A stretch of 37,773 bases of DNA from a bacterium (lineage in GTDB: Bacteria; UBA10199; JADGCS01), in contig JAHJDR010000012.1 of NCBI GenBank assembly GCA_018812345.1, positions 1-37,773 on the forward strand, written 5' to 3'. The notes under the pieces are model-generated. The model was not told where the DNA came from and made no database searches. It worked only from the letters and a program-made list of their open reading frames with translations. Below, piece by piece: positions 1,777 through 35,573 of the stretch; the stretch's first letter is position 1; each line of letters opens with the position of its first letter. A program made the translations under genes and the position numbers.

Positions 1777-3288
1777 ATGGTCGATAAAGCACAACAAGCT
1801 AAATCAGTCATATTCCCTGTTTATGAAGGGGCAGGTCTTGCCTATGATATTGCGCGTTTTAGTGTGGAATATAATCAGGACAAGAAATGGACAGATTTAA
1901 CTCTTCCTCCCATGAATCTAGCGCGCCCTGAGCATGAACTGGCACCTGAAGCAGCTGCTGTCGGGGCTTTTTTAGAGCTCTCACAGATGGGGCTACGTGG
2001 TGTAATGCGACCAACCTATGTTTTTAATCCCCCTAAATTATATTCTGATAATGAGGTAACAACCAGAGATTATCCTCAGCTTCAAACAGGCATGTTTAAT
2101 CGCCTCACAGGCTCATTGGGTACGGATTGGATGGTTAGACAGGCCCTTGGTAATACCTACATGTATAACCGAGCAGAGTTTAGTGATGAGCCCTTTAATT
2201 CTTCCATGGCCTATGCGTACGGGGCGATGTTCTATCTCAACGCCATTTCAACGCCTTTAGAAATGCAGGCTACACAAAATATTGGCAATAAAGGGGTGGG
2301 GTGTACAGACGGCGCGATTAATGACATTAAAGGTCTTTTTAATTTTGAGACTTATGAAGAAGCGCAAGAGTTTTGTAATGCAGAGCAACCTGTTAATGGC
2401 GGACAAGATTTGGCAACCTACGATGATGAATATACTCAAGAAGAATGGGATGCCTTAAATGCTGAATGGGAAAATAAATTTTTAGAACTATCTGCTGTAA
2501 ATCGTTCTCTCTATACTTTTGGACAAGGTTCGCGTTTAACCACAATGATAAATTCTTCTCTGGGTGGTTTTCAGGCCTTGGAATTATATGATGGCAGACC
2601 CTCTGCTGGCACAATAGCCTTTGCTATTAGTGTACCCATAACACAATTTGCTTTGGCCCATAAAAGGGCAAAAGAACAAGGTGAACCGCGCAATGCTGAG
2701 GGTAAAATTGTGCCCATGAGCACGGAAAATGCGGTGTTGACTTTATCGGCTCATACGCTTGGTGGTTTACAAGCAAGTTTTATTGAAGACAAAGAAGTTT
2801 TACGAGCCGTTGGCGCCATGAATGGCATGGCTATTGATTGGTATAGTCCGCAAGTACACAGACAATTATATGCGGTATCTCTTGATACGGGTGCGTCTCA
2901 AGTGGCACCATTAATTAATGTTGTGATGCCTGTTTTAGAAGGCGGCCAGCATTTAAGCGGTGGTTTTCGATATGGCGCAGCTCTTGACGATGCCTCTACA
3001 CCTGGTGAAAAAGTCATGCTGCATGGAACGGCTGCACTTTATGGTGGTATTTATCTTGGTCGTACAATTGAAGCGGGGCAAGCAGAGCCACAAGTGTGGG
3101 CTAATTTTGGTATAAATACAGGCGTTTTTGGCGTCAGTACTTTAGTTGGTTATTTAACACGTAATACACCTTTTGGTCGTGTGATGAATGGTGAGCTTGT
3201 AGGAGATAGGCCAGGCGGCTTAGCTTCTTTACGTATAACAGGTGGTCCAAATGGTACGACAGGTCTTGGAATAGCAGGAGAATTTTAA
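1777..3288 (+). CDS. Hypothetical protein (503 aa), first gene of the giant-lipoprotein block
   Basis: Long ORF with GAGG 8-11 nt upstream. No N-terminal signal peptide. The C-terminal third has Gly/Ala-rich hydrophobic stretches and ends ...GLGIAGEF. Confidence 0.8.
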   Translation: MVDKAQQAKSVIFPVYEGAGLAYDIARFSVEYNQDKKWTDLTLPPMNLARPEHELAPEAAAVGAFLELSQMGLRGVMRPTYVFNPPKLYSDNEVTTRDYPQLQTGMFNRLTGSLGTDWMVRQALGNTYMYNRAEFSDEPFNSSMAYAYGAMFYLNAISTPLEMQATQNIGNKGVGCTDGAINDIKGLFNFETYEEAQEFCNAEQPVNGGQDLATYDDEYTQEEWDALNAEWENKFLELSAVNRSLYTFGQGSRLTTMINSSLGGFQALELYDGRPSAGTIAFAISVPITQFALAHKRAKEQGEPRNAEGKIVPMSTENAVLTLSAHTLGGLQASFIEDKEVLRAVGAMNGMAIDWYSPQVHRQLYAVSLDTGASQVAPLINVVMPVLEGGQHLSGGFRYGAALDDASTPGEKVMLHGTAALYGGIYLGRTIEAGQAEPQVWANFGINTGVFGVSTLVGYLTRNTPFGRVMNGELVGDRPGGLASLRITGGPNGTTGLGIAGEF

Positions 3289-3291
3289 TGA

Positions 3292-3357
3292 GTCTCACGT
3301 CGCTCGTCTCACGTCTCACGTAAATTAACGCTAGACGATAGACGCTAGACGCTAGAC
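3292..3357. repeat. Heptamer-array hairpin (GTCTCAC-type arm / CTAGACG-type arm)
   Basis: Left arm GTCTCAC GTCGCTC GTCTCAC GTCTCAC G (3292-3320). Loop TAAATTAA. Right arm CGCTAGACGATAGACGCTAGACGCTAGAC (3329-3357). The arms pair at about 5 of every 7 positions. Confidence 0.85.
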
Positions 3358-3366
3358 AAAACAACA

Positions 3367-6300
3367 ATGATACGACGGCTAAGCAAATACATAATCGCAC
3401 TTATCGCTTTTCTACTCATTTTCGCTAGTTGTGCTTCCGAAAATCAAGCCATAGATCTTGCTGAAATTGCAGACAATGATTCTAATACAGGTGATGGTGG
3501 TTCCTTTTATCCTGATGCAAGTGGCTCAACCAATATTTGCGATGAAGATGAAGATGGGAATTGTATTGATGAAGCGACGATTAGTTCTATCATGCTGAAC
3601 AATCAACAGCTTGATTATAATATGAGCGAGCTTGATGATATTGAGTGTCAGTCGCTAGGACTTCCTTCAGGTGTTTCTTTTGAAGCAGAAATAGATCAAG
3701 ATAATACAAGTCTTGTTGACGGTATTTACCAATTTACAGTCATGAATGCGAGTGGTGGTTATTCTGAAGGCCGTGTAACAGGTGCTGGAGATATTACAAT
3801 TTGTTACATGCGTTCCAGCATTGGAACACATTCTGGACAAGTGAAAATTCTTCTCAATGCGAGCAGCGTTTCATCTTCTGCCTATGCGTACATAATAAAA
3901 ACATCAGGACAAACACTCGCCCCTCTTTTTACCATAACAAATCCCACTGAAGGGTTGATTATAGATAAGCGAGATGGGCATCATGAGGGTGTTGACAGTG
4001 CTGAAGGAGATTATTTATTAACCGTAACAGGAACAGTTAATCTTGATTTGCAAACCATTTTTGAAAAGGGATTAAATACAGACCTTTATATCGAAGCTGA
4101 TGGTGTTAAATATAAGACAAGCTTTAGTGAGAGTGGTAGCTTTTCAAAACAAGTGGGTGTGCCACAGGTTGAGGGTATTTATGCGGTTAAAGTTTCTCTT
4201 AATACAAACAGAGATAGTGTTTTAGCAAAAACAATTAATGTTGTTGTGGCAGGTGCTCCTGATTTAGAAATTGAAGTACGCGATGTTTCAGAAACAGAAA
4301 TTGACACAACAGCGCCAACAGATCTTCCTTATCTTATTGTTGGGCTGCGCATTTCAAATTTAGCGACATCTGGATCAAGTGAAACAGACATGCCTGTGGT
4401 CTTGTCTGATATTGCCTTTAATGGCGAAGAGCTTTATCCAAATACATCTATTTGGTATGATGAAAGTTGGTCTTGGTGCGAGTCTAAAGAACTAACATCA
4501 GAAGACACAAAAGGATTTACAGGCGTAAACACCTTATGCATTCCTCTTGATCATATAACAGAGCTTCAAGATGGTGTTAATACGATTACCGCAAAAGCAA
4601 CCAATGTGCTTGGTGAAAGCTCTGTAAGCTACACACTGATCATTGATAATGATAAGCCTATTATAACGGTTACGAGCCCAGGTCAAAATCAGCTTTATGC
4701 TCCTGGGCAAACAAAAATTACAGTTTCAGGAAAAGTTAAATATTTTGCACCACTTGATTCGAGTCTTGCCTCCTCTAAACCAACGCCTGCAAGTGGTGAT
4801 GTGGGCAGTTATTGTCAGCCCACAGAAGAAGATGATTCAGATTGTCCGGCGTCGAGTGTTAAAATGTGGTTTAACGTTTCAACCAGTGATGACAACTATC
4901 CTATCTATATATATCCGGATTACGCTGATAGCTATTCCACTGTTTCCCAAGCAGAACAAGAAGCCTATATGGATAGTGAAAGTGGGCAGCATGGCAATTG
5001 TTATACACAGCAAACAACCGAAGAAAATGATGATGGCTCAGAAACTATTGAAGAAAACATAGTTTGTGATGTGCCAGAAGGAAATTTTAAATTAACGCTG
5101 ACAGTACCTTCCCTAGATCACCACGCCCATATTAATCTTTATACGAATGTTTTAGAATTGCAGGCAGAAAGTGTGAAAGGACATAGAACAATTGAGGTTG
5201 TGACCTTTCAGGTTGGTGAAACAAGCTCACATAAGAGAAGTTTTAAATTGGGCCAAACAGCGCGAACATCAACATTAACCTCAGGTCAGCTGGGTCTTGT
5301 AGAAACGTCTTGTGGTGTGACAGAAGAGGTTTGTGTTAACCGAGCACCTGTGATGCTCAATGTTTCTGAAGGCCTTATTAGTCGTGATTCAGTTGAAGGG
5401 GCTAAGATATTAAAAGTTGTGGAACATTACCTTAATGAAAATCTTAGTTTTGCAGACGTGGCAAATGGTTGGATGAACTGGCCAAAAGATGATGACGATA
5501 ACATTGCTCTTGAAGAAGATTTTCAGAAACAATGGTTGGAATCTAGCGAGAGTGATGGCGTACGCTATGATGATTTTAAAGATTTACCACCTGCTTGGAA
5601 AAAAAAGTTTATTCAACAAGCTTTGCATAGCAATGTTATGGCCATGAAGTTTTGGGCCTGGGTTCGCTACATTGATTACTTACAGGATTCTGAGGATTCA
5701 GATTGTGATATCCATCCTGAACAATGCTATTTTGAGCGAGAAGGCAACCCAGAAGATGACTACAATGTTGCTCTAGATAAGTGTGGTGAAGTGATTACCT
5801 CGTCTTTTGTGCCTATTGGTGATTTTATTCGCGTGGCAGAAACATTTAAAGACTATGACACAGATCGCATACGCTTGTGGCCAGAATGGCCAGATATTGC
5901 GGGCACGGATTTTGAGTATAATGATTTTGTATCTGGCAAATGGCTTGTTCAAAGTTTGAACCTAAAAGCAAATGGTTATGTGGATGCTGATGTGTGCATT
6001 GTTCCTGATGATGAAGCTCTTTATGATTCTTATCTTCTCAATGGGTGTGATGCGAATGTTGATAGTGCTGATGTGCCAGCTTTTTGGGGCCATTTTGTTT
6101 CTTACAATCTTGTAGAGGGTGGGCTTCTTGGTGAAAACAATGCCTTGCCCATTAATGATGAAACGATTCCCATGGTATGGTCTGTTGGTAAGATTCGATT
6201 AACATTTGAAGATGTTATTCAGGTAACAAAAGAAAAAATTGGTGATGTTTGGGCAAATAAAATTAATATTTTTGAAGATAAAATTAATATTGTTCAATGG

Positions 6301-8205
6301 GACGAGTTGGAAGATTTGTTTAAAGCAGGTGTGATGCACGCGCAAACCATTCAAGTAGAGCCTTTTTCTAACTGCCCAGCCTATTATGCCCAAAAGCACC
6401 CAGGCTATGAAATTCCCTTTGGTTGCTCAAATAGTGAAATGTCCAACTACCCCTTTGTGTTAGAGTTGAACTCAACAAAAGGACAGGACGTATATATAGG
6501 ACTAATGGATAATGGTGCGAGTTCCTATATGTTGGGTGTGGTTTGGCAAGGTGTGATAGAAACCTTTAAGAAAATGGTTGGCTGCATGGATACTGAAATG
6601 GTTAACCCCATGATCTCTTCTCATTATGATTATCCTGAGTGGGTATGGGAAGGTGGCGCCATGTCTTTAGATTTTGAATGGGAAGAATTTAATTTTGGTG
6701 CGAACATTGAAAATAGTGATCTGAATATTTTTGATGGTGGTATTACAGCGAGAGTGCCTTTAAGTCTCGGTGTTGATGGTGTGCCCATGACATCATTCAT
6801 AAATATGATAAGCTCACCCACTGGATTCAATTTGGGACAAACATCTAAGCTTGGCAGTTTCAGAACAGCAACAGAAGCGCATACCAAAGGACATCTTGTG
6901 CGTTCCCAACAAAACAATTATTTAGAAGGGTATCCCTTAACAAGTGATAGCCCTCAAACAGAGGCTTTTCTGGGGTTGTCCATTAATATAGAAGAAATTG
7001 TTAATGCCGCTTCATATTTAATTTTCAAAAAAGGTCCCCTATCACTTCTAGAAACCTTTGAAGTGGAAGAGTTAGAAAAAAACACAAACTGGAGTTTGGG
7101 TGTTGATAAGGTAATACTCGGTCGTTTTGATATTTGTAATATAGCGGGCCTGATTGGTTCTGAATTAGCACCATCTCTTTTATTTGCTACAACTCAATCT
7201 TTATTTAATGAATCATCGCTACACTTAGATGTTATTTTAGATCCTGATTATCCCGTAACACTTTCCTTAAATCCCATTGAGGGTGCTGGCAGCAACGCTA
7301 CAGAAATTCAATTGGGTGTGTCCAACTTACAAATTGGTATCAAAGAACTTGTGGCTTATACACGTAATGGCGACGTTCAGGCTAATGTCTATGAAAACCC
7401 CAAAGATCAGGAAGAGCTATTGCGTCTTCGTCTCGATGGAGTGATCAAGGTGAGGGTTGTTTATTACAAAGAGCTCAGACAGATTCACGTATACTTACCA
7501 GGTTTTACAGAGCAAAACGTTCATGTTAGCATTGTTCCCGGACGTGGTGGGCCAACGTATGATGATGTGAATGTGGTAACAGATGTGCTCAATGGTGTGA
7601 TCGCAGCTGTTTTTGATAAAATGGGCAAAGACATCTATGAGGATTTTGATGATGATGGCAATCTTGATCCTACTATTGCCAACCCAACACTTGTGGTGAC
7701 GCTAAAAGGTAATGATGAATATGGTCCGGGCACATTTAATGTTGCCAGCTTAGAAGACTTTGAATTTGAATTAAAAGTTGAAGCTGCCGAAAACGCTTCT
7801 TGTGGCGATGATATTCCTTATTATTCAGAAGAAGTAGATTATCCACAAAGACCAGATATGTTTAACAATTCTAAAACGAAAAATGTAGGTAGTTCTGTGC
7901 TCAAATCTTCGAGCAAGCTCCCTCAGCTGACAGGTGATTTGCAGCCAATTAGTCTGGATCTTAGTAAGGACTATACAATACATATGTGGAACGATCCCTG
8001 TAAGTTTCTCTATCCTGGAAAGTTAGTTAAAGAAGAAGATGGCACGTTTACTAGAGAAGAAGATGTTTTAAGAGAAACGCTTTGTGATTTTGGAATCAAA
8101 GATGTTGTGATCGATCCTGTGATCGAGTTTGATAATGATGAAGGTTATATTCATGTTTCAGCTGACTTGTTTATTGAGTTGGAGAATTGGCTTATAGATG
8201 ACTAA
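3367..8205 (+). CDS. Giant acidic Cys-rich lipoprotein (1612 aa), function unknown
   Basis: Uninterrupted 4.8 kb ORF. Lipoprotein signal MIRRLSKYIIALIAFLLIFASC. It has many D/E residues and about 28 Cys, mostly in local pairs, which suggests a disulfide-rich extracytoplasmic protein. Confidence 0.9.
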   Translation: MIRRLSKYIIALIAFLLIFASCASENQAIDLAEIADNDSNTGDGGSFYPDASGSTNICDEDEDGNCIDEATISSIMLNNQQLDYNMSELDDIECQSLGLPSGVSFEAEIDQDNTSLVDGIYQFTVMNASGGYSEGRVTGAGDITICYMRSSIGTHSGQVKILLNASSVSSSAYAYIIKTSGQTLAPLFTITNPTEGLIIDKRDGHHEGVDSAEGDYLLTVTGTVNLDLQTIFEKGLNTDLYIEADGVKYKTSFSESGSFSKQVGVPQVEGIYAVKVSLNTNRDSVLAKTINVVVAGAPDLEIEVRDVSETEIDTTAPTDLPYLIVGLRISNLATSGSSETDMPVVLSDIAFNGEELYPNTSIWYDESWSWCESKELTSEDTKGFTGVNTLCIPLDHITELQDGVNTITAKATNVLGESSVSYTLIIDNDKPIITVTSPGQNQLYAPGQTKITVSGKVKYFAPLDSSLASSKPTPASGDVGSYCQPTEEDDSDCPASSVKMWFNVSTSDDNYPIYIYPDYADSYSTVSQAEQEAYMDSESGQHGNCYTQQTTEENDDGSETIEENIVCDVPEGNFKLTLTVPSLDHHAHINLYTNVLELQAESVKGHRTIEVVTFQVGETSSHKRSFKLGQTARTSTLTSGQLGLVETSCGVTEEVCVNRAPVMLNVSEGLISRDSVEGAKILKVVEHYLNENLSFADVANGWMNWPKDDDDNIALEEDFQKQWLESSESDGVRYDDFKDLPPAWKKKFIQQALHSNVMAMKFWAWVRYIDYLQDSEDSDCDIHPEQCYFEREGNPEDDYNVALDKCGEVITSSFVPIGDFIRVAETFKDYDTDRIRLWPEWPDIAGTDFEYNDFVSGKWLVQSLNLKANGYVDADVCIVPDDEALYDSYLLNGCDANVDSADVPAFWGHFVSYNLVEGGLLGENNALPINDETIPMVWSVGKIRLTFEDVIQVTKEKIGDVWANKINIFEDKINIVQWDELEDLFKAGVMHAQTIQVEPFSNCPAYYAQKHPGYEIPFGCSNSEMSNYPFVLELNSTKGQDVYIGLMDNGASSYMLGVVWQGVIETFKKMVGCMDTEMVNPMISSHYDYPEWVWEGGAMSLDFEWEEFNFGANIENSDLNIFDGGITARVPLSLGVDGVPMTSFINMISSPTGFNLGQTSKLGSFRTATEAHTKGHLVRSQQNNYLEGYPLTSDSPQTEAFLGLSINIEEIVNAASYLIFKKGPLSLLETFEVEELEKNTNWSLGVDKVILGRFDICNIAGLIGSELAPSLLFATTQSLFNESSLHLDVILDPDYPVTLSLNPIEGAGSNATEIQLGVSNLQIGIKELVAYTRNGDVQANVYENPKDQEELLRLRLDGVIKVRVVYYKELRQIHVYLPGFTEQNVHVSIVPGRGGPTYDDVNVVTDVLNGVIAAVFDKMGKDIYEDFDDDGNLDPTIANPTLVVTLKGNDEYGPGTFNVASLEDFEFELKVEAAENASCGDDIPYYSEEVDYPQRPDMFNNSKTKNVGSSVLKSSSKLPQLTGDLQPISLDLSKDYTIHMWNDPCKFLYPGKLVKEEDGTFTREEDVLRETLCDFGIKDVVIDPVIEFDNDEGYIHVSADLFIELENWLIDD

Positions 8206-8229
8206 AGACTAAAGTCCAAAGACTAAAGT
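8202..8229. repeat. CTAAAGA heptamer array (left arm around the four-helix-bundle gene)
   Basis: CTAAAGA CTAAAGT CCAAAGA CTAAAGT. The TAA stop of the 3367..8205 ORF (8203-8205) lies inside the first unit. Confidence 0.85.
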
Positions 8230-8242
8230 TGGAGATGTTGTT

Positions 8243-8632
8243 ATGTCGAAATTTTAACGTTTTGAAGATATTGAAAGCTGGAAAAAAGCAAGAGAGCTTA
8301 ATAAAAAAATATATGAATTAACTAATACTGAAAGATTTAATAAGGATTTTGGATTTAAAGACCAAATTAGAAGAGCTTCATTATCTATAAGCAGTAATAT
8401 TGCAGAGGGTTTTGAAAGAGGTGGAGACAAGGAATTTTTCCAATGCTTGTCCATAGCTAAAGGTTCTTGTGGAGAAGTTAGGTCGCAGCTGTATTTAGCC
8501 TATGATATTAAGTATGTTTCTAAAGAAGAAGCTGAAATGTTATTAGAAGAGGCTTCTGAGATTAGTAAAATGATAAATGGATTAATGAAATATTTAAGGA
8601 GTTCAGAATTTACAGGAAAAAAATACAAATGA
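8243..8632 (+). pseudogene. Four-helix-bundle protein (23S rRNA intervening-sequence protein / Avd-like family) with an in-frame TAA at codon 5
   Basis: The frame reads MSKF*RFEDIESWKKARELNKKIYELT...QIRRASLSISSNIAEGFERGGDKEFFQCLSIAKGSCGEVRSQLYLAYDIKYVSKEE.... This matches the family hallmarks FEDLxVWQKA and R(R)AxxSIxxNIAEG. There is no ATG, GTG or TTG between the TAA (8255-8257) and the TTG at 8447. Confidence 0.75.
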
Positions 8633-9036
8633 CTCAATTAAGAAAAAATAATACCCTCTTTGTATTAAAACTAACTTTAGTCTTTAGTCTTTGGTCTTTA
8701 GTCTTTACAAGTTGTTCCACATTCTACGGTGGTACAACGAGTTCTGAGGGGGATATGAGTGTTTCAGCCTCTCCGACCGAGATAGCTATTAGTGGTGATG
8801 CGGGTACAACCAGTCATCGCACAATTACGTTTTCTAATGCGTCAGACCAGAGTTTTGAAATTCATAATATGGCTTTTGTAGATAATGATTGTGGGGCCTA
8901 TTCTGTTTATAATGTGCTCGATGAAGCCAATAATGTTCTCTATCAAACAGGTAATCCTATTTCTATTAGCGTTGTTTCTGGGGCAAGCATTAGTATTAAT
9001 CTGCAATTTAGCCCCACATCTTGTAAAACAACATAA
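8629..9036 (+). CDS. Lipoprotein, N-terminal part (135 aa), ended by an in-frame TAA
   Basis: The ATG overlaps the upstream TGA (ATGA). Signal peptide and lipobox ...LVFSLWSLVFTSC. Beta-sandwich-like pattern (ITFSNASDQSFEIHNM...ISINLQFSP). Confidence 0.7.
   Translation: MTQLRKNNTLFVLKLTLVFSLWSLVFTSCSTFYGGTTSSEGDMSVSASPTEIAISGDAGTTSHRTITFSNASDQSFEIHNMAFVDNDCGAYSVYNVLDEANNVLYQTGNPISISVVSGASISINLQFSPTSCKTT
8674..8708. repeat. TCTTTAG heptamer array (right arm, reverse complement of CTAAAGA) inside the signal-peptide codons
   Basis: ACTTTAG TCTTTAG TCTTTGG TCTTTAG TCTTTAC. Its reverse complement matches 8202-8229 at 25 of 28 positions. It encodes LVFSLWSLVF. Confidence 0.85.
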
Positions 9037-9063
9037 TACACAACAACATTTATTATTTATTAT

Positions 9064-9906
9064 ATGATGGGGGAAACTGAGCTGTCTGACGCGGTTTCTT
9101 TGTTCACAACAGTTACAGATAATGCGCCTGATGCTGTTGTGTGTGATGAGGTTTCCAGAAGTTATTATGACGAATATGATAACCCCACAGAACGATCTCT
9201 GCCCGTTCTAGCTGATGGCAAGTCATACTATTTAAGAATTGATAAACTAAGCGCGTACATTCAAACAACAGGTGCTTTTGCTGCTTACGCGACTCAGGTA
9301 AGCACGCACTTGTATTTAGATGTGATTCCCGAAGCTGATCGCTACCAGCCTGTTTACTTGCCCTTTACAACAGATGAATCTGGCAATGTGACAGTAGCTG
9401 AAATTGATGCCTGTTCTGGTTTTGGAATGCCAACACCAATAACAGACACATTCTTTTTAGCCGCACCTGTTGCTGTGAATACAGCCGAGGCTTTTATAGG
9501 TTCAATTGATCGCGCGGAAACCCCTGGTCGCTTTTCTGTTCCCAATATTGTGCTCAGGATGTCTTCTTATATAAATAACTCTAATTCCCTTTTGCAAAGT
9601 ACAGAGGGCTATTTTGATGTTAATATTAATGTGGCCAGCCTCACGTCAGGGGAAACAGCTTCAAATGATTTTTTGCTAGATGTGCCTGCAGATACAGATG
9701 ATGATGGTGAACCTTTGCTCAATATTGTAGATGATAAGCTTGTGGGCAAAGATATAAGACATGGCACTGTGACTCTGGTTGGTATTGGCGAGTTTATTCA
9801 AGATGATAACACAAAGCTTTCTAACGAAGCTGTGTCTGCGATTATTGATAATGAATCCTATCTGTTTATTCAGATTGAAGGCGTTGTGACGCAGGAGATT
9901 GATTAG
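9064..9906 (+). CDS. Hypothetical protein (280 aa), in the same frame as 8629..9036 and probably its continuation
   Basis: 9064-8629 = 435 nt, a multiple of 3. Only the TAA at 9034-9036 separates the two ORFs. No signal peptide of its own. Confidence 0.65.
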   Translation: MMGETELSDAVSLFTTVTDNAPDAVVCDEVSRSYYDEYDNPTERSLPVLADGKSYYLRIDKLSAYIQTTGAFAAYATQVSTHLYLDVIPEADRYQPVYLPFTTDESGNVTVAEIDACSGFGMPTPITDTFFLAAPVAVNTAEAFIGSIDRAETPGRFSVPNIVLRMSSYINNSNSLLQSTEGYFDVNINVASLTSGETASNDFLLDVPADTDDDGEPLLNIVDDKLVGKDIRHGTVTLVGIGEFIQDDNTKLSNEAVSAIIDNESYLFIQIEGVVTQEID

Positions 9907-9910
9907 TTAT

Positions 9911-9987
9911 TCGTTGCTCGTTTTCCGTTGTCCGTATGAAGATAAAAAACGGACCACGGACCACGGACCACGGGCCACGGACCACGA
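9911..9987. repeat. Heptamer-array hairpin (TCGTTGC-type arm / (CGGACCA)x5 arm)
   Basis: Left arm TCGTTGC TCGTTTT CCGTTGT CCGT (9911-9935). The loop is A-rich. Right arm is CGGACCA x5 with one G variant (9950-9987). The inner 11 positions pair 10 of 11. Confidence 0.85.
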
Positions 9988-9992
9988 GAAGT

Positions 9993-12900
9993 ATGCTAAA
10001 GAGAATAAAAACATATTTCCTCATAGTATTATTCGTAGTAGTAGCTCTAACCCCAGCCTGTGGTGGTGAGGGTGACGTTGTAGATGCTTTGCCAGATATT
10101 AGTCCAACGCCAGATTTTACACCTGCGGCGGATACGAGTTTGGCTGATATGGCTATTAATACTTTCTTAGACAATGGTATTAGTATTACTGTTGATCCTG
10201 AATTTGTTGATTTCAATGACGAGAATGGCGCTATTAGTGAAGACGACGAATTGTATGCCGCTTTTAGCCTGACAAACAATTCAGGGACAACGCGCTCCTT
10301 TAACCTCAAAATTTATTCTGTATCAACGGGCTTTTCTATTGTTGATGAAAATAAAGAAAATCTGGGCAGCTATAATTACATAGAGGTTGCTCAGGGTGAA
10401 ACAAGAGAATTCTATTTAAAATTCAATGCGTGGGTTTTTGGAACACAAACAAGTTACATCACGATTACAGCAGATATTGATGGTTATATCCGATTTCCTA
10501 TGAGAGCTTCTGTGACAGGGCCCACAAGTTTTAAAATAATTTCCACAGGCTATTTTTGCACAGATGACAATGCGCCATCTATATCTTCTTTAGACTTTTA
10601 TAAAGCAGCCTATGGCCAAACAAAAATTCAAGGCATTAAGATCTGTAATACAGGCGGTGAGGACATTAAAATAAATATGGCAAGTCTAGAAGTTGGTGAT
10701 GATGCTACGCAATCGGATGCTATGCTAGGGAATGCTTTTCAAGATTTTATTTGGCAGATTACAGATGAGATTGATAGCACCTTTTCTTTTGGCCAAGAAC
10801 CAACAGCAACGAAGAGCTTTACGGAACCAAATTTTATAGATTACACAGGATCTCTTGATGATCCCGCCGCGAGCTATGATGTCCGCGTTTATCATACCGG
10901 TGCTGCCGTTCAAAATATTCTCATAGAAGCGGGAAAAATTCTCATGCTGGATGTTTTATACAGTCCGACAATGGCTGTAGAGGCGCCAGAAGGCTCTCTT
11001 TATAATTCTGTTGGGGTTAATGCCTTGCTAAAACTCAGCACATCGCTGGGAACAATAAGAATTCCTCTTGTGGGGGCTACGGGTGGTCAAGAGCCCATGC
11101 TTGAAATGGCCTATCGTTTGAGTGGCGAAGATGTTTATAAACCTATAGATCTTTATTCTGATGGTGCCGCAGCATACTTTGGTCGTGTGGAACTTTTTTT
11201 GGACTGGGTTTCTGCCAATTCATCTGTTGCTGAAATCAAAATAGCTAATGTGGGTAGTGGTTCAAAAGATCTTGAATTTTATGGTGGCGCTTTAAATGGT
11301 TTTTATGAGTATTATTGGGAAACAGGTGACAGTTTAAGTTTTCCCGTTACCCTCTCTTCTGGAGAAGAAGATTCTTTCTTTATGCGTTATTTGCCTGCGG
11401 CAACAAAAGCGCTCGATGAGGCTTATGATGCTACATGGGATTTTGGCCAATTTTATTTTGAACACACAGGTGGTAATGGACCACAAGGTAAGGTTTCGCT
11501 TGTCGGTGAACAAGATGCTGGCTACTCTGTTGAGCTTTTTTATGGTGGTGCTAAATTAGAGCATGAATATGAGGATGGTCGTAAAAAGAATTTATGTGTT
11601 TTTTCTACAGATCCTGCAAACCCAACAATGATTACGTTTAAAGTGGTTAATAATAATAAACTCAATAGTATGAGTGTTGATTGGGATATTAGAGATGATG
11701 ATGGTAATATAACAGCAACACCGAGTAGTGGTTTTGTTTCTGTTGACCCTGATTCTTCTTATTCATTTACAGTGGGTTTTGTGGCTTCTGGTGATGTTGT
11801 GGGCACAATGGTTTCGGGAGCGTTTAATGTGACGACAGAGTTTCCAGAGGCAGAAGCTCTTTATGCCGCACAGACTCAAGACCTTGTAGATCGAATTTTT
11901 TTAGTGCCATTTCAAGCCATGGCAAGCGAGTCAGGAGAGAGTAATTTGTGTAATACGGGTGTTCTCGGTGAAGACGGTACAACCCGAGCTACCTTTGTTA
12001 TTGATCGCGTGACCATGGTGATGACCGATCTTATTGAGTCAGCACATAATCCACCACCTTTCCGCTTTCATTTGCCGCTTGATGTGAATGCTCAGGACGG
12101 AACAGTGCGCATCGCAGAGCCTATTGAATTACAATTTAATGAAGAAGATCTTAATCCTTTAAAGTCTGTTCGTTCCTTTACGCATCAGGCAACCAATATT
12201 CAGGGTTGTGCCCCCTTACCTACTAATCCCTACAGCTTAGAGTATAAAAAGGGGAGCTGGACAGGAAAAGGTATTGAATGCTCGGATGATGGAGAGGGAA
12301 CAATTAAATACACAACGCCTTTGGGAGAAAATATTACTATTGATTCAGATACAGCTTGTATGCCCACAAATGGTGGGGAAGAAGTTATAGATGAAAATGG
12401 TGTTCGTTGGATGGTTGTGTACCATGAATTTGTTAAGTTTGATAACTGTGATGTTGAATACTATGGGAAAATAGCCACATTTGCTTACCGCCCTGATCTC
12501 GAAGATGTGAATGATGTCTTTAAGAGGGCTGAAGCGGCGCCTAATGAAAGTGAATCTTATTATGAAGGTGTTTACGGAGCTTATCAATATGGTTCCTACA
12601 TTACTTTCTTAGATGATACTAAATGTGCTGGTAATAAATATGGCCCAAGCTCGACACAAACTATTACGGATCCTGATGTTGTGAAAGATTGTTACAAGTC
12701 ATTGGCCTCAAAAAGTGATACGCGCCGACAAGATGGTTTTGTAAATGAATGCTCTTATTTTGTGTTTACTATTGATGAAGGTGTTGTGCCTGCTGATGCC
12801 ACTTCTGAAAATCCTGATTATGATTCTTGGGTAAGTTTTGGCACTTATGAGCCTCATGTGGATGATGAAGGGGAAACGCATGAAACTAAATATGATATAA

Positions 12901-13787
12901 CTATATATAATGTGCATTTTGTAGCCTATGTTTTAGGGGCAGGCGATCGTGGTATTTTCTTTAGTCACCCAGGGCATCTTGTTTATTCTGATATGTATGT
13001 GACCATCACAACAAAGCGCATTGCTGAGGAATCCTGGTATGATGGTGATTGGCAGCAACGTATTTCTTCTAATACAAGGCAGCACCTTGATAAGAACCAG
13101 ATTTTTCTAAAAGATGGGGAACGCTATGATACGAAGAAATTCTGGACAGAAGATGGTATTAATGAAGAGTTTAGTAATGTGATTGAGCAAAAAACCCTTG
13201 TTGATTCAGGTTTCAATTATGGTGGTTTTGGTAAGGGCGATTTTAGATTTTGGGGTGGTGATCCTAATGCCAAAACAATTATTTTTGCTGGTTGGCCTGT
13301 AAATTATGATGAACATAATCTTGTGCTTATGGTTGGTATTGGGGCTTTTAATGGTAAAGGAAATACGGCACCGTCATTTGCCAAAGCTGATGCCACAACA
13401 GGACAGGGTAAGCCCCTCTATTTTTCTTTTACAGGTTGTCTCATACCTGGCGAAGCTGCTGATAACCAGGGTTGCTTTGACTGGCATATTGATGACGGGG
13501 TTATGCCTGATGGCACGCCCTTGATTGATCTTTATAGCGAATCACAAATTGGCATGTTGCCTGATGGGTATGTTGATGAGCCTGGTGATTGTGCTAATTT
13601 AGAAAATGCAGGCTTTGCTGATCCCTCTAATCCTGATTATGATATGTATAAATACATGCCCTGTATTAATTATAAGATAATTGATGGTTTTGATCGTGAC
13701 CGTTACAAAAATTACTACGATAATTCGAATAAAATTGATTATGGCAATGACCCTTACGGTTCGTCTACCTGTGGTTACGGCAATTAG
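9993..13787 (+). CDS. Large Cys-rich lipoprotein (1264 aa) with repeated Ig-like/beta-sandwich modules, function unknown
   Basis: The ORF is open from 9936, but its first 19 codons translate the heptamer array. The ATG at 9993 gives MLKRIKTYFLIVLFVVVALTPAC, a lipoprotein-type signal. Recurrent 'xNxGxxxL'-type strands (FSLTNNSGTTRSF, IKICNTGGEDIKI, IKIANVGSGSKDL) resemble choice-of-anchor-D/ASH-like domains. Confidence 0.9.
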   Translation: MLKRIKTYFLIVLFVVVALTPACGGEGDVVDALPDISPTPDFTPAADTSLADMAINTFLDNGISITVDPEFVDFNDENGAISEDDELYAAFSLTNNSGTTRSFNLKIYSVSTGFSIVDENKENLGSYNYIEVAQGETREFYLKFNAWVFGTQTSYITITADIDGYIRFPMRASVTGPTSFKIISTGYFCTDDNAPSISSLDFYKAAYGQTKIQGIKICNTGGEDIKINMASLEVGDDATQSDAMLGNAFQDFIWQITDEIDSTFSFGQEPTATKSFTEPNFIDYTGSLDDPAASYDVRVYHTGAAVQNILIEAGKILMLDVLYSPTMAVEAPEGSLYNSVGVNALLKLSTSLGTIRIPLVGATGGQEPMLEMAYRLSGEDVYKPIDLYSDGAAAYFGRVELFLDWVSANSSVAEIKIANVGSGSKDLEFYGGALNGFYEYYWETGDSLSFPVTLSSGEEDSFFMRYLPAATKALDEAYDATWDFGQFYFEHTGGNGPQGKVSLVGEQDAGYSVELFYGGAKLEHEYEDGRKKNLCVFSTDPANPTMITFKVVNNNKLNSMSVDWDIRDDDGNITATPSSGFVSVDPDSSYSFTVGFVASGDVVGTMVSGAFNVTTEFPEAEALYAAQTQDLVDRIFLVPFQAMASESGESNLCNTGVLGEDGTTRATFVIDRVTMVMTDLIESAHNPPPFRFHLPLDVNAQDGTVRIAEPIELQFNEEDLNPLKSVRSFTHQATNIQGCAPLPTNPYSLEYKKGSWTGKGIECSDDGEGTIKYTTPLGENITIDSDTACMPTNGGEEVIDENGVRWMVVYHEFVKFDNCDVEYYGKIATFAYRPDLEDVNDVFKRAEAAPNESESYYEGVYGAYQYGSYITFLDDTKCAGNKYGPSSTQTITDPDVVKDCYKSLASKSDTRRQDGFVNECSYFVFTIDEGVVPADATSENPDYDSWVSFGTYEPHVDDEGETHETKYDITIYNVHFVAYVLGAGDRGIFFSHPGHLVYSDMYVTITTKRIAEESWYDGDWQQRISSNTRQHLDKNQIFLKDGERYDTKKFWTEDGINEEFSNVIEQKTLVDSGFNYGGFGKGDFRFWGGDPNAKTIIFAGWPVNYDEHNLVLMVGIGAFNGKGNTAPSFAKADATTGQGKPLYFSFTGCLIPGEAADNQGCFDWHIDDGVMPDGTPLIDLYSESQIGMLPDGYVDEPGDCANLENAGFADPSNPDYDMYKYMPCINYKIIDGFDRDRYKNYYDNSNKIDYGNDPYGSSTCGYGN

Positions 13788-13799
13788 GGTAAGAAAATA

Positions 13800-13857
13800 C
13801 GAAATCCGAATTTCGAAATCCGAAACAAAATAGTTTGGATTATTGATTGTCTTTTTT
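13800..13857 (+). repeat. CGAAATC heptamer array with hairpin and T-run (likely end of the operon)
   Basis: CGAAATC CGAATTT CGAAATC CGAAAC (13800-13826). It pairs with GTTTGGATT (13833-13841). T6 at 13852-13857. Confidence 0.65.
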
Positions 13858-13886
13858 ACATCAAATCAGTAAACAATCACCAATTT

Positions 13887-15014
13887 ATGACAAAAAAAAT
13901 TCCAGCTTATCTGGTCCTAAAAGATGGAACAGTGTTTGAGGGGTTTGGTTTTGGTTCATTAAACACCAATTCTGGTGAAGTTGTTTTCAATACATCCATG
14001 ACAGGTTATCAAGAAATTCTCACAGATCCATCCTATGCAGGACAGATCGTTGTGATGACCTATCCTCACATTGGCAATTATGGCATCAACCCAGAAGATG
14101 TGGAGTCGAGAAAGATTTATGCACAAGGCTTGGTCGTGAAAGAATTATCAGAAATCTATTCTAACCACCGGGCCACGTTATCGTTGGATGCTTATTTGAA
14201 AAAAGAAGGTGTTCCAGGAATCTCTGGCATTGATACCCGCGCCCTTGTGCGCCACATAAGGAATAAAGGCGCCATGCCAGCGCTATTGTCTGTGGGATCT
14301 AAACAAACAGCAAAACAACTCATTAAAGAGGCTAATAACTTACCAGAGATGAAAGGCCAGAATCTGGCAAAAGAGGTCTCAACGAAGGGCGTAAGGCGCA
14401 GGGAGCAAGGCGTAAGGCGCAGGGAGCAAGGCGTAAGGCAAAAACAGCGCTTCAATGTGATTGCCTATGATTATGGAATAAAGTTAAATATTTTGAGGTT
14501 GTTGGAAGCGCATGGGTGTAACGTTACGGTAGTGCCTTATGATTATTCAGCGGATAGAATTCTTAAGTCTAAAACGAAAATAGATGGTGTGTTTCTGTCC
14601 AATGGACCAGGAGATCCCGCGCCTTGTTTTCAAGCCATTGAGAATGTCAAAAAGCTTATTGGGAAAAAACCAATATTTGGTATTTGTTTAGGCCATCAAA
14701 TATTAGCCTTAGCCCTTGGGGCAAAAACATATAAATTAAAATTTGGTCATCATGGTGGTAATCAGCCGGTAAAAAATCTTGAAAAAGAAACAGTAGAGAT
14801 TACTGCGCAAAACCACGGTTTTGCTGTTGATCCACAAACATTGCCCCACGATGTAAAGATCACACACATTCATTTGAATGATCAGACGGTTTCAGGGATC
14901 AAGCATGAAACCTTGCCATTGTTTTCAGTGCAGTATCATCCCGAAGCTAGTCCGGGGCCGCATGATAGCACGTATCTCTTTCATCAATTTGTTGAATTGA
15001 TGAAAGAGAAATGA
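13887..15014 (+). CDS. carA: Carbamoyl-phosphate synthase small (glutaminase) subunit
   Basis: Full-length similarity, including the GICLGHQ catalytic Cys motif and QYHPEASPGPHD. Confidence 0.95.
   Translation: MTKKIPAYLVLKDGTVFEGFGFGSLNTNSGEVVFNTSMTGYQEILTDPSYAGQIVVMTYPHIGNYGINPEDVESRKIYAQGLVVKELSEIYSNHRATLSLDAYLKKEGVPGISGIDTRALVRHIRNKGAMPALLSVGSKQTAKQLIKEANNLPEMKGQNLAKEVSTKGVRRREQGVRRREQGVRQKQRFNVIAYDYGIKLNILRLLEAHGCNVTVVPYDYSADRILKSKTKIDGVFLSNGPGDPAPCFQAIENVKKLIGKKPIFGICLGHQILALALGAKTYKLKFGHHGGNQPVKNLEKETVEITAQNHGFAVDPQTLPHDVKITHIHLNDQTVSGIKHETLPLFSVQYHPEASPGPHDSTYLFHQFVELMKEK
14388..14440 (+). repeat. In-frame 21-bp tandem repeat (2.5 copies) inside carA
   Basis: GGCGTAAGGCGCAGGGAGCAA x2 plus GGCGTAAGGCA. 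Each unit is three degenerate heptamers (GGCGTAA GGCGCAG GGAGCAA). It encodes GVRRREQ GVRRREQ GVRQ in the inter-domain linker. Confidence 0.9.
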
Positions 15015-15053
15015 AAAATGAAAAATACATAAATGAAAAATGAAAAAGTAAAA
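15009..15053. repeat. AATGAAA heptamer array filling the carA-carB spacer
   Basis: ...GAGAAATGAAAAATGAAAAATACATAAATGAAAAATGAAAAAGTAAAAG. The carA stop TGA (15012-15014) is inside the array. Confidence 0.8.
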
Positions 15054-15054
15054 G

Positions 15055-18324: not shown

Positions 18325-18352
18325 TTACTAAAGAATATCATAAATTGAACTT

Positions 18353-18465
18353 AGTTCAATAGCCAATAATCAATAATGAATATCCAATATCCATTTGGTA
18401 GTTTCAAATCAGCACAGTACTAACTTGATGATTGGATATTGTTCTGTTGGATATTGAATATTGAA
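18353..18465. repeat. CAATATC/GATATTG-family hairpin element, copy 1
   Basis: It starts AGTTCAATAGCCAA. Left arm CAATAATCAATAATGAATATCCAATATCCAT. Right arm ACTTGATGATTGGATATTGTTCTGTTGGATATTGAATATTGAA. Confidence 0.85.
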
Positions 18466-18467
18466 AT

Positions 18468-19481: not shown

Positions 19482-19486
19482 GGCTT

Positions 19487-19566
19487 GGTTATCGGTTATA
19501 TCGGTTATCGGTTATCGGTTATCAGTTATCGGTTATCGGTTATCGGTTATCGGTTGTCGGTTATCG
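19487..19566. repeat. (GGTTATC)x11 tandem array abutting the ADH start codon
   Basis: Eleven units with three variants (GGTTATATC, AGTTATC, GGTTGTC). The array begins 6 nt from the ADH ATG (19481, minus strand). T10 homopolymer at 19572-19581. Confidence 0.9.
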
Positions 19567-19681
19567 TGGTGTTTTTTTTTTATAGTTTTATTATTATTGG
19601 AGAGCAATAATCAATATCAAATTGATTAATAGGTTGTTTAATGCCATATTTGCTATATTGTTAAGCAATTGTAATCGCTTA

Positions 19682-19725
19682 CGATAACACGATAACCTAT
19701 AACCGACAACCTATAACCGATAACC
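19682..19725. repeat. GATAAC-type heptamer array (inverted partner of 19487-19566) abutting the NRDE start codon
   Basis: CGATAAC ACGATAAC CTATAAC CGACAAC CTATAAC CGATAAC. It ends 4 nt before the ATG at 19730. Confidence 0.85.
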
Positions 19726-19729
19726 AATT

Positions 19730-20500: not shown

Positions 20501-20606
20501 AGTTCAATAGCCAACACTCAACAGAACAATATCCAATCATCAAGTAAGATGGCTAGTATTTTTAGTTGAATATTGGATATTGATTATTGGATATTGGATA
20601 TTGAAA
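20501..20606. repeat. CAATATC/GATATTG-family hairpin element, copy 2
   Basis: It starts AGTTCAATAGCCAA, as copy 1 does. The left arm contains CAACAGAACAATATCCAATCATCAAGT (20519-20545), the exact reverse complement of 18423-18449. Right arm TTGAATATTGGATATTGATTATTGGATATTGGATATTGAA. Confidence 0.85.
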
Positions 20607-20634
20607 AAAGGGCGCATTGGGGGCGCCCTTTTTT
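20604..20634. terminator. Bidirectional rho-independent terminator between convergent genes
   Basis: A6 run, then stem GGGCGC / GCGCCC (20610-20615 / 20623-20628) with a 7-nt loop, then T6 run. Confidence 0.8.
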
Positions 20635-20663
20635 GAGAGATTAGATTGAGATATGTTAATACA

Positions 20664-25379: not shown

Positions 25380-25385
25380 GGGTTA

Positions 25386-25455
25386 TCGTCGCTCGTCTCT
25401 CGTCGCTCGTCGCTCGTATGAAACGATAGACGCTAGACGCTAGACGCTAGACGCT
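25386..25455. repeat. Heptamer-array hairpin (TCGTCGC-type arm / CTAGACG arm)
   Basis: Left arm TCGTCGCTCGTCTCTCGTCGCTCGTCGCTCG. Loop TATGAAA. Right arm CGATAGACG(CTAGACG)x3 CTG. The Nnr stop codon (25447-25449, minus strand) lies in the array. Confidence 0.85.
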
Positions 25456-26931: not shown

Positions 26932-26952
26932 TTTTTGTTGGTCTCATGTAAA

Positions 26953-27024
26953 CGAGACAGTCGAGACAGTCGAGACAATCGAGACAGTCGTGTTGTTGAT
27001 GCAACGATTGTCTCGATTGTCTCG
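26953..27024. repeat. 9-nt-period array hairpin (CGAGACAGT / CGATTGTCT)
   Basis: CGAGACAGT x4 with one AAT variant (26953-26990). Inverted partner CGATTGTCT x2 (27005-27024), which is perfectly complementary to the CGAGACAATCG variant. Confidence 0.85.
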
Positions 27025-27045
27025 CAATACAAGCGACGTAAATCG

Positions 27046-28446: not shown

Positions 28447-28538
28447 TATTCAATAATGAATATCCAATATCCATGTTTTAAGCCTGTTTGGTTATGGATT
28501 TAAGGGGTGTTGATTATTGGATATTGAAGATTGATAAC
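28442..28538. repeat. CAATATC/GATATTG-family hairpin element, copy 3
   Basis: The left arm contains CAATAATGAATATCCAATATCCAT (28451-28474), identical to 18371-18394. Right arm TTGATTATTGGATATTGAAGATTGATAAC. Confidence 0.85.
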
Positions 28539-28565
28539 TGTGGCTAATAAATTTAAAAGCAAAAA

Positions 28566-32469: not shown

Positions 32470-32477
32470 CTTGTTTT

Positions 32478-32541
32478 CCGTGTCCCGTGTCTCGTGTCTT
32501 GTGTTCGGCATTCTGAACACTGAGCACTGGACACTGAGCAC
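32478..32541. repeat. Heptamer-array hairpin (CCGTGTC arm / GAGCACT arm)
   Basis: CCGTGTC CCGTGTC TCGTGTC TTGTGTT C, then loop GGCATTCT, then GAACACT GAGCACT GGACACT GAGCAC. GTG/CAC cores pair every 7 nt. Confidence 0.85.
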
Positions 32542-32550
32542 TTATAGTTC

Positions 32551-33294
32551 GTGTTCAGAAGAAATATCATTATTTACACGTTTTTCATTTTATTGTTATA
32601 TCCAAGTGTGGCTCAAACAGCAGACTGGACAATCCTGCCATCAGGCCTTGCCTATAAACAGATAGAAATTGTCTTAAATGAATCAGTGATTTCACTTCAT
32701 GCCCTTAAAATTGACCCTTCACAATACACAATTAAACCAATTTTTTCTGAAACAAGTGCTTCTGTACAAAAGTTAGCTCTCAAGACAGGTTCTTTAGCTG
32801 TTATCAATGCCAATTTTTTTGATACAAAAGGCAGGGTTCTTGGTTTAGTGAGAAATGATAACAAAAACATTAATAATATAAAGAAAATATCCTGGTGGTC
32901 AGTGTTTTGTCATAAAAATAAGCAGGCAAAAATTGTTCACACAACACAGTACAACGATACTTTTTGCGAGCAGGCTGTTCAGGCAGGGCCTAGGCTGGTT
33001 GTTGATGGGATTATGCCAAAGCTCAAGGATGAGCTTTCACGAAAAACAGTCGTGGGTATTGATCGTCAGGGCTTCATAATTTTTGTGGTGAGCAAACAAG
33101 AGATTCCTATTAAATTGTTAGCTGAAATCATGACGCAATCTGAAACAAATGGTGGTTTTGATTGTCCTAACGCTATCAATATGGACGGAGGAGGCTCATC
33201 GCAGCTTTATATTCAAGACGCGCCTGTTGACTACAATTTGCCCAGTTTTGTTGAGGTTCCTGTCGGGTTGGGGGTCTTTTTAAATGAAAAATGA
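32551..33294 (+). CDS. Phosphodiester glycosidase family protein (DUF2233/NAGPA-like), secreted
   Basis: GTG start and a signal peptide ...YPSVAQTA. Family blocks AVINANFFD and NMDGGGSS. Confidence 0.75.
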   Translation: MFRRNIIIYTFFILLLYPSVAQTADWTILPSGLAYKQIEIVLNESVISLHALKIDPSQYTIKPIFSETSASVQKLALKTGSLAVINANFFDTKGRVLGLVRNDNKNINNIKKISWWSVFCHKNKQAKIVHTTQYNDTFCEQAVQAGPRLVVDGIMPKLKDELSRKTVVGIDRQGFIIFVVSKQEIPIKLLAEIMTQSETNGGFDCPNAINMDGGGSSQLYIQDAPVDYNLPSFVEVPVGLGVFLNEK

Positions 33295-33320
33295 AAAGTG
33301 AATATTGAAAAGTGATAAAA
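33283..33320. repeat. AATGAAA heptamer array (second locus)
   Basis: AATGAAA AATGAAA AGTGAAT ATTGAAA AGTGATA AAAT. The TGA stop (33292-33294) and the last codons (NEK) of the upstream gene lie inside it. Confidence 0.8.
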
Positions 33321-33321
33321 T

Positions 33322-33862: not shown

Positions 33863-33872
33863 TTTTAACATT

Positions 33873-34729: not shown

Positions 34730-34736
34730 GTTTGAA

Positions 34737-35486: not shown

Positions 35487-35495
35487 TGTTCTTTA

Positions 35496-35565: not shown

Positions 35566-35573
35566 TTACAGAA

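Follow-up and report, generated by a model that had tools for sequence, protein, structure and literature searches.

A four-helix-bundle gene between inverted heptamer arrays in a bacterial lipoprotein operon: a probable intervening-sequence-type cassette outside rRNA

We analyzed a 37,773-nucleotide stretch of DNA (the window: contig JAHJDR010000012.1 of assembly GCA_018812345.1) from a bacterium of the UBA10199 lineage, in which a gene for a four-helix-bundle (4HB) protein lies between two inverted arrays of tandem heptamers inside an operon of predicted lipoprotein genes. The 4HB gene occupies positions 8243–8632 of the forward strand (129 codons), and on the same strand a Shine-Dalgarno-like GGAG, read from the sequence, is located at 8231–8234, 8 nt ahead of the ATG at 8243. 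An initial annotation had assigned the gene to the family encoded within intervening sequences (IVSs) of 23S rRNA, and hidden Markov model (HMM) searches confirm this assignment. PF05635 is matched at 131.3 bits (cut-off 33.8) over profile positions 1–106 of 106, and TIGR02436 at 130.6 bits (cut-off 24). The conserved family motif GxxRxxxSxxxNxxE (Zhang et al. 2013, PMC3936711) is present in the intact product (P0001) as R44-x3-S48-x3-N52-x2-E55, with Q41 at the position of the leading G. Solved four-helix-bundle relatives in the PDB, 2gsc (E=2.9e-14) and 2rld, were each deposited with five chains.

The copy in the window carries a premature stop, a TAA at codon 5 (8255–8257, forward strand), where sibling assemblies have GAA. 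The open reading frame (ORF) is intact, with all 129 codons and GAA at codon 5, in four contigs of essentially the same organism: L002 (GCA_018824645.1), L003, L004 (GCA_043812215.1), and L005. It is also intact in a group of relatives, L006–L012, which retain both arrays and encode a 4HB protein 92% identical to that of the window lineage. Only eight positions distinguish the window from L002 across 18.5 kb, and two of these differences are G→T changes that convert GAA to TAA. One lies at 8255 in the 4HB gene and the other at 9034 in the adjacent 425-aa lipoprotein gene, which appears as two ORFs in the window. These two alleles could be a linked knock-out haplotype, or they could be assembly or oxidation errors.

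The 4HB gene is enclosed by arms at 8200–8230 and 8673–8703, which are 31 nt long, lie 442 nt apart, and are complementary at 28 of 31 positions (90%). A register shifted by one unit pairs 8203–8228 with 8682–8707 at 96% complementarity over 26 nt. Both arms consist of tandem heptamers, GACTAAA ×4.1 on the left and CTTTAGT ×4.7 on the right. The left arm (8200–8230, forward strand) contains the four heptamers GACTAAA, GACTAAA, GTCCAAA, and GACTAAA followed by GTT, and is noncoding past 8205. The full right array (8673–8707, forward strand) is built of CTTTAGT-type heptamers and is translated as LTLVFSLWSLVF. The best ungapped score for arm complementarity is 23, whereas across 500 shuffles the score averaged 7.6 and never exceeded 13. 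The inverted repeat proposed in the initial annotation is real. Since the window is rich in arrays, the appropriate null is chance pairing between any two of them. By this measure, 6 of 351 heptamer-array pairs in the window (1.7%), including the 8200/8675 pair, are complementary at a score of at least 18.

Both arms overlap the coding regions of neighboring genes. The upstream predicted lipoprotein gene (3367–8205, forward strand; 1612 aa; N-terminus MIRRLSKYIIALIAFLLIFASC) ends with a TAA at 8203–8205 inside the left arm, and it is kept as a gene of 1586–1700 aa in all relatives. The downstream predicted lipoprotein gene (8629–9906, forward strand; 425 aa) has a start codon that overlaps the 4HB stop (ATGA), a lipobox Cys codon at 8713–8715, and the TAA at 9034–9036 that results from the second G→T change. 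The right-arm translation LTLVFSLWSLVF sits within MTQLRKNNTLFVLKLTLVFSLWSLVFTSC, the signal peptide plus lipobox of this gene, where it supplies residues 15–26 and forms the hydrophobic core. An in-frame TAG is avoided in the right arm by a CTTTGGT unit. Thus, it is correct that one arm holds the upstream stop codon and the other encodes the downstream signal peptide. The description of both flanking genes as giant does not hold for the downstream one, which encodes 425 aa. Similarly, the 4HB gene does lie within the loop but is not its only content, because the start codon (8629) and first 15 codons of the downstream gene are also there.

The element separates genes 2 and 3 of a conserved operon of four genes. 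In predicted minimum-free-energy folds, its arms form a closing stem of ∼34 bp, in the window and in L006 alike. A scan of the cassette for promoters and terminators revealed no promoter-like and no terminator-like site, and Rfam, tRNA, and PADLOC scans of the window returned no matches. The operon itself (1777–13787) encodes a 503-aa protein without a signal peptide, followed by predicted lipoproteins of 1612, 425, and 1264 aa. Its products are essentially without Pfam or NCBIfam matches, and the gene order is retained in relatives as distant as 42% identity, marine TARA contigs among them.

The suggested likeness to 23S rRNA IVSs is supported, and it is extended by heptamers in the IVS of Coxiella burnetii and by a layout that recurs across phyla outside rRNA. 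The Coxiella IVS is 428 nt long, has terminal inverted repeats that form a 28-bp stem, and carries an S23p ORF preceded by two to three tandem GACAGAT heptamers whose copy number varies among strains (Warrier et al. 2016, PMC4990558). [quoted passage not shown] The same authors call the function and origin of IVSs unclear and note that transposition remnants have long been suspected (PMC4990558). The window element is similar in size (∼504 nt; stems of 28–31 bp for the two elements), has tandem heptamers on its 5′ side before the ORF, and carries an S23p/PF05635 ORF in its loop, as do the ORF-bearing 23S IVSs of Coxiella and Leptospira (the latter as cited in PMC4990558). For 23S IVSs and for the cassette, the ORF is prone to decay while the stem stays, and the distribution is sporadic and apparently horizontal.

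There are also clear differences. The 23S IVSs are located in helix 9, 25, or 45, whereas the window element is placed in an mRNA context, with a protein-coding gene on either side and with one arm translated as a signal peptide. The Coxiella protein is apparently not made, whereas the protein of the window lineage is under purifying selection (see below). RNase III cleavage has been shown for the Coxiella IVS and would extend to the window element by analogy. A search for 23S motifs in all fetched loci found none in rRNA, and no Rfam family was detected in the window. Because no rRNA-resident copy is among these loci, the comparison with a true IVS draws on the Coxiella paper. We file the locus as a PF05635 member and not as an rRNA IVS, as its location does not agree with the latter; we regard it as an element of the IVS kind that resides in an mRNA.

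A protein-guided scan of species-representative genomes yielded 80 loci with PF05635 genes of 53%–65% identity, which served as a survey of the family. The loci come from about ten phyla, among them Acidobacteriota, Bacteroidota, Ignavibacteriota, Planctomycetota, Verrucomicrobiota, Nitrospirota, Chloroflexota, and Pseudomonadota, and the best match to the window protein in this collection is 65% identical. The survey (80+9 loci) was picked by similarity to one protein, with ungapped arm alignments and ambiguous array registers, and the following counts are to be read in this light. An inverted repeat scoring at least 14 was found for 63 of 78 PF05635 genes, compared with 1 of 139 control intervals shifted by 1.7 kb. 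At L025, for example, AGTCCAAAGTCTAAAGTCCAAAGTCCAAAGT is matched by its perfect reverse complement on the other side of the gene. Within 200 nt of a PF05635 gene, the density of period-7 arrays is 25-fold that of the rest of the flanks, and most arm arrays (77 of 107) have four or five units. On the coding strand upstream, the units follow the consensus A-A-R-G-T-Y-C, and the most frequent of them, AAAGTCC, also occurs in the left arm of the window as one of its four units. Arms of 9-mers flank PF05635 genes at the Thermodesulfovibrio-type loci L061 and L063.

Neighboring genes are largely co-oriented with the PF05635 gene, both upstream (64 of 76) and downstream (70 of 75). The median gaps are 64 and 63 nt, and therefore the cassette and its arms fill the operon spacer. 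The co-orientation of neighbors and the exact filling of spacers point to a life within transcripts. Protein identity is higher at loci that share an arm unit than at loci with different units, both within a taxon (0.71 vs. 0.60) and across taxa (0.58 vs. 0.54), using hand-assigned taxon labels. This covariation in sequence is consistent with joint inheritance of gene and arms.

More distant homologs borne on plasmids (30%–46% identity) conform to the same pattern, as all nine have inverted arrays (units GGGAACA, GGTGACA, TTAGCTG, GGAGGGC, and others). Their hosts are Nostoc, Calothrix, Anabaena, Pseudanabaena, Geminocystis, Riemerella, Azospirillum, and Gemmatirosa. Two of these copies, in L106 (Pseudanabaena) and L110 (Anabaena sp. 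90), sit in type I-D CRISPR-Cas operons, squeezed between cas6 and cas4, and such placements may account for the family having been called cas-associated. The presence of PF05635 genes in cas operons was earlier read as a functional association (PMC3936711), but a promiscuous passenger is a better fit, and caution is warranted wherever such genes in cas or other operons are taken for functional partners. The inverted heptamer-array arms and operon embedding of the PF05635 family across phyla are the general finding of the survey; in open-access papers and bioRxiv, we found no description of PF05635/S23p genes with heptamer arms outside rRNA.

Comparison of the window lineage with L006 reveals constraint on both the gene and its arms. 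The 4HB gene has a synonymous divergence (dS) of 0.66, a nonsynonymous divergence (dN) of 0.036, and a dN/dS of 0.054, and the neighboring 1612-aa gene has a dS of 1.19. The carA dN/dS was left out as unreliable, probably owing to an alignment offset. At such distances about 10 changes are expected in the 25 noncoding bases of the left arm and none is seen, the whole arm being identical at 31 of 31 positions. In L006, the coding right arm has lost 6 nt to a deletion and has undergone two transitions, each of which yields a G·U pair when folded. In neighboring spacers, gene-less hairpins have been partly or wholly swapped for arrays of other units between the same two lineages. Low dN/dS and an invariant left arm, set against the turnover of neighboring hairpins, show that the protein as well as the arms is preserved as long as the gene is alive, and the arms can also outlive the gene, as in relative L015. 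Some process generates or replaces gene-less arrays quickly. One such replacement between lineages (dS ∼0.7–1.2) is that of an ACGGACC array by a GGCAATT-type array.

The history of the site was traced in relatives found via the 425-aa protein, and the percentages in this paragraph are identities of that protein unless the 4HB protein is named. In L015 (59%), the arms are kept (left arm AGACCAAAGACCAAAGACTAAAGAGTAAAGTCCAAAG) around a dead 4HB gene, which has 54% identity over 100 aa and is interrupted by two stops and a frameshift. In L014 (70%), the gene is gone; TAAAGACCAAAGAAA is found at the stop codon, and unrelated arrays separate it from (TCTTTGG)×5 in the signal peptide. L102 (58%) has a 50-nt spacer with a solo (GCTGACR)×5 array, and L017 (48%) has an unrelated GC-rich palindrome. 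The initial annotation suggested an insertion, and relatives with an empty site do exist: L103 (54%), L104 (51%), and L016 (49%) have spacers of 5–7 nt without gene or array. Over 16–17 kb, L016 has no heptamer array at all and L017 has one. Overall, the cassette is present in three of nine orthologous operons examined and deeper relatives have an empty site, a sporadic distribution that fits horizontal acquisition.

The simplest reading of these sequences is a single entry of the gene with its arms, into the common ancestor of the window lineage, L006, L014, and L015. The 4HB protein is dispensable despite purifying selection; its gene has decayed to a pseudogene in L015, was lost in L014, and has a nonsense codon in the window. 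Array-encoded signal peptides of the 425-aa lipoprotein are seen in this clade at 1893–1975 of L014 and at 8673–8707 of the window. The (TCTTTGG)×5 array of L014 reads SLVFGLWSLVFG, and the preceding part of that signal peptide derives from another array hairpin.

These data lead us to consider it highly probable that the locus is an IVS-type cassette with an architecture common to its family. The complete explanation, in which a nonribosomal IVS-type cassette with the above history is also processed by RNase III, is one we hold to be probable, with reservations, and the RNase III step, drawn from Coxiella, is a tentative part of it. We propose that a 4HB gene with its own ribosome-binding site and without promoter or terminator, bracketed by ∼31-nt arms of four to five heptamers, would have arrived in the ancestor of a small clade, gene and arms together, between operon genes 2 and 3. 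Later, the start codon and charged N-terminus of gene 3 would have come to lie in the loop, and the right arm would have been co-opted to encode the hydrophobic core in the signal peptide of gene 3.

On the polycistronic RNA, the arms may pair to form a duplex of ∼31–34 bp. By analogy with Coxiella, RNase III could cut this duplex mid-stem and free the 4HB message. A cut in the right arm would split the start codon and N-region of the downstream lipoprotein from its body, and because of this, excision would not be harmless. Ribosomes that end at 8203–8205 or read through 8673–8707 would melt the stem and so compete with pairing, and the stem could determine how strongly the upstream and downstream genes are expressed relative to each other. 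We therefore favor, again by analogy, a role in switching the transcript between processing and translation over harmless excision.

Several observations weigh against this explanation. Cleavage in the window organism is argued purely by analogy, and destruction of the downstream message by a cut in the right arm is awkward for a simple excision role. Pfam scans of 28 ORFs, which comprise most long ORFs, revealed neither a recombinase nor a reverse transcriptase, and no transposase in or near the cassette; target-site duplications were not noticed, although no systematic search was made. Arm mismatches at 73 loci are of the G·U type in 69 cases and of the A·C type in 64, with no bias. A DNA palindrome shows this pattern, as do arms that are individually constrained to a consensus, whereas a helix selected on the sense strand does not. 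Two alternatives therefore stay live, namely an element acting at the level of DNA and arrays to which a protein binds (possibly the pentameric 4HB protein itself, given four to five units per arm). Finally, AAAGTCC arrays are far more common without a gene than with one, so that arms belonging to the gene is not the sole reading. Among ∼67 evaluable (AAAGTCC)3 arrays on metagenome contigs, three adjoin a PF05635 ORF, 17 have a partner arm but no gene, and the rest are solitary; this search used a partner-arm regular expression and an HMM from close relatives only, and may undercount. Because few arrays adjoin a PF05635 ORF, heptamer arrays are a broader phenomenon of which 4HB cassettes are a subset. 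The use of (AAAGTCC)n arrays as markers for 4HB cassettes was dropped, since most lie away from any PF05635 ORF.

The initial annotation suggested that the 4HB gene was inserted into a pre-existing array hairpin. This would mean that naked 4HB genes home to the loops of heptamer hairpins, an idea that keeps some life because heptamer arrays extend beyond 4HB cassettes. Hairpins without a gene occur in ∼17 of 27 window spacers and near 4HB genes elsewhere, (AAAGTCC)n arrays mostly lack a gene, and arm units partly track the host taxon, as with the GGGAACA and GGTGACA types of cyanobacteria. However, the outgroup sites have 5- to 7-nt spacers and no hairpin. The arm unit is that of the closest 4HB homologs (Pyrinomonadaceae type), an AAAGACT/AAAGTCC unit found family-wide and atypical of the other arrays in this genome. 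Higher protein identity where the arm unit is shared, within and across taxa, and cassette arms that are frozen while gene-less hairpins turn over also disfavor the idea, and we consider it unlikely. A mobile cassette acting at the DNA level, with the arms as terminal inverted repeats whose reiterated sites are bound by a recombinase supplied in trans and with incidental RNA pairing, is a somewhat stronger candidate that we still judge improbable. It would account for arm mismatches without strand bias and for sporadic presence at orthologous sites, and it agrees with the long-standing suspicion that IVSs are transposition remnants (PMC4990558). Yet the scanned ORFs include no transposase, no target-site duplication was noticed, although no systematic search was made for one, and the co-orientation with neighbors and exact filling of operon spacers point to a life within transcripts. 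Near-identical paralogs are also missing: in a search of 5.8 billion proteins, the next-best match after the 92% orthologue is 67% identical, with no close paralog. Paralogous copies in other window spacers, a possibility raised in the initial annotation, were not found when the remaining hairpin loops of the window were searched by tblastn for traces of a 4HB gene.

Alternatively, the arms could be binding arrays for the 4HB protein, with one heptamer per subunit of a pentamer, serving autoregulation and making the protein a global regulator in array-rich genomes. Unit numbers that cluster at four to five, the five chains of 2gsc and 2rld, purifying selection on the protein along with an invariant arm, and covariation of unit type with protein similarity would all fit, and a study of Nostoc postulates a heptamer-binding partner (10.1101/2022.06.06.494920). 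Against this, the binding is putative, the five chains may reflect crystal packing only, the arms persist around a dead gene (L015 and the window), and most arrays of the arm unit are far from any 4HB gene; we regard the proposal as doubtful. Two simpler readings can be given almost no credence. Coincidental complementarity of neighboring arrays might be suspected in a window with about 25 of them, but only 1.7% of array pairs are this complementary, the arm pair is conserved in two further lineages, and the layout recurs with PF05635 across phyla. The gene might instead be an Avd accessory of a diversity-generating retroelement. Avd proteins (bAvd; PF22296, NF033474) are a distantly related four-helix-bundle family, and the fold relationship noted initially is upheld by a match to PHROG 3206 (E=8e-8) and a weaker one to NF033474 (E=2.5e-4). 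These scores nevertheless fall far under the Avd family cut-offs (21.3 vs. 80 bits for NF033474 and 16.8 vs. 40 bits for PF22296), no reverse transcriptase was detected in the same Pfam scans of 28 ORFs, and no template/variable repeat pair was found. We know of no Avd genes described with heptamer-array arms.

The locus and the survey connect the question of IVS origin with that of bacterial heptamer repeats. The IVS ORF family bears inverted heptamer-array arms at whatever site it occupies and resides mostly in ordinary operons and not in rRNA, which makes it a general, testable class beyond the ribosomes of a few pathogens, and a candidate protein partner for heptamer repeats can be named. 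In the broadest view, there would be a pan-bacterial class of transcript-resident cassettes in operon spacers, cas operons, and plasmids, with 23S IVSs as its rRNA subset and a 4HB pentamer as the trans-acting partner of heptamer repeats. As a whole this is a long shot. Its architectural half is largely shown, whereas the partnership of protein and repeat is speculation. If true, a 4HB pentamer would bind one heptamer per subunit and control processing or translation genome-wide at arrays of the TAACTGA and TTTTGAA types and at short tandemly repeated repetitive (STRR) sequences. The family-wide layout makes both the nature of IVSs and the function of heptamer repeats experimentally approachable, and Flavobacterium, Chitinophaga, Riemerella, and Nostoc are culturable carriers that could serve as test systems. 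The window locus also displays a case in which a repeat arm has been recruited as a signal peptide.

STRR sequences of cyanobacteria are tandem heptamer repeats. Related series are the TAACTGA repeats of Beggiatoaceae, Cyanobacteria, and Bacteroidetes, whose description has no mention of a helix bundle and includes one inverted set among 170 (MacGregor 2015, PMC4679880), and the TTTTGAA repeats of Nostoc (10.1101/2022.06.06.494920). Like the window arms, these are tandem 7-nt units in spacers, often at start or stop codons. Unlike the window arms, the published repeats are described as direct repeats, with no link drawn to PF05635 or inverted pairing. The units TAACTGA, CCCCAGT, TTGGTCA, and CAACAGT are absent from the window arrays, and the arm units are GACTAAA and GTCCAAA. 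Stem-loops processed by RNase III in mRNAs include sites in phage T7 early mRNA, rpsO-pnp, and the rnc leader. These resemble the cassette in having a long near-perfect duplex between cistrons of one transcript, but they are short-range hairpins without an enclosed gene or periodic repeat arms. Repetitive extragenic palindromic (REP) sequences, bacterial interspersed mosaic elements (BIMEs), and miniature inverted-repeat transposable elements (MITEs) are likewise repeated palindromic elements in intergenic spacers of operons. In contrast to these, the cassette has arms of variable-unit heptamer arrays and a conserved non-transposase gene as cargo.

The array-bearing spacers of the window contain heptamers (once 9-mers), mostly as inverted pairs with loops of 3–115 nt; of all these hairpins, that of the 4HB cassette alone encloses a gene. 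Such spacers include 3289–3366, 9907–9992, 13788–13886, 15015–15054, 18325–18467, 19482–19729, 20501–20663, 25380–25446, 26932–27045, 28447–28565, 32470–32550, 33793–33872, 34706–34736, 35487–35573, and 37616–37773. Units vary among spacers and include ACGCTAG, GTCTCAC, GGTTATC (×11), CAATATC, ACGGACC, AAATCCG, and AAATGAA. The gene-less hairpins fold well under shuffled controls (z −2.4 to −5.7), and those adjoining 4HB genes in other phyla have related units. Array density is 0.66/kb in the window, compared with 0.12/kb in the flanks from other genomes and ∼0 in deeper relatives of the lineage. An unpaired array of AGACYAA ×4.4 (34699–34729, forward strand) belongs to the unit family of the cassette arms; it overlaps the stop of gene 34169–34705, lacks a partner arm and a gene, and is complementary to the right arm of the cassette at a score of 24. 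Some (AAAGTCC)n arrays also lie within long ORFs and would there be translated into KSKVQSP-like inserts (L137, 5830–5900; L170, 6535–6560; L113, 5663–5690).

Some of the other hairpins have distinctive features. Those at 3289–3366 and 25380–25446 are strictly periodic, with helices of 4–5 bp and internal loops of 2×2 or 3×3 once per heptamer. In both, units of the GTCTCAC or TCGTCGC type pair imperfectly with ACGCTAG arrays, and the two arm pairs have opposite orientations relative to the flanking genes. The hairpin at 26953–27024 is made from 9-mers, CGAGACAGT ×4 opposite CGATTGTCT ×2. An 11-mer, GTTCGGCATTC, recurs at 32503–32513 and 33838–33848, each time as the loop or junction just before the 3′ array; at least two matches were obtained in 7 of 100 shuffles, and the signal is weak. 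A-rich (AAATGAA)n arrays at 15009–15047 and 33282–33321 stop a few bases from the starts of carB and of gene 33322–33792, respectively, a placement that resembles the start-codon-proximal TAACTGA repeats of Beggiatoaceae. ACGCTAG arrays are present at three distant spacers (3328–3357, 25423–25455, and 37719–37773). The last of these, at the end of the window, forms a near-perfect hairpin with its complement at 37686–37715 (−48.7 kcal/mol, z = −5.0).

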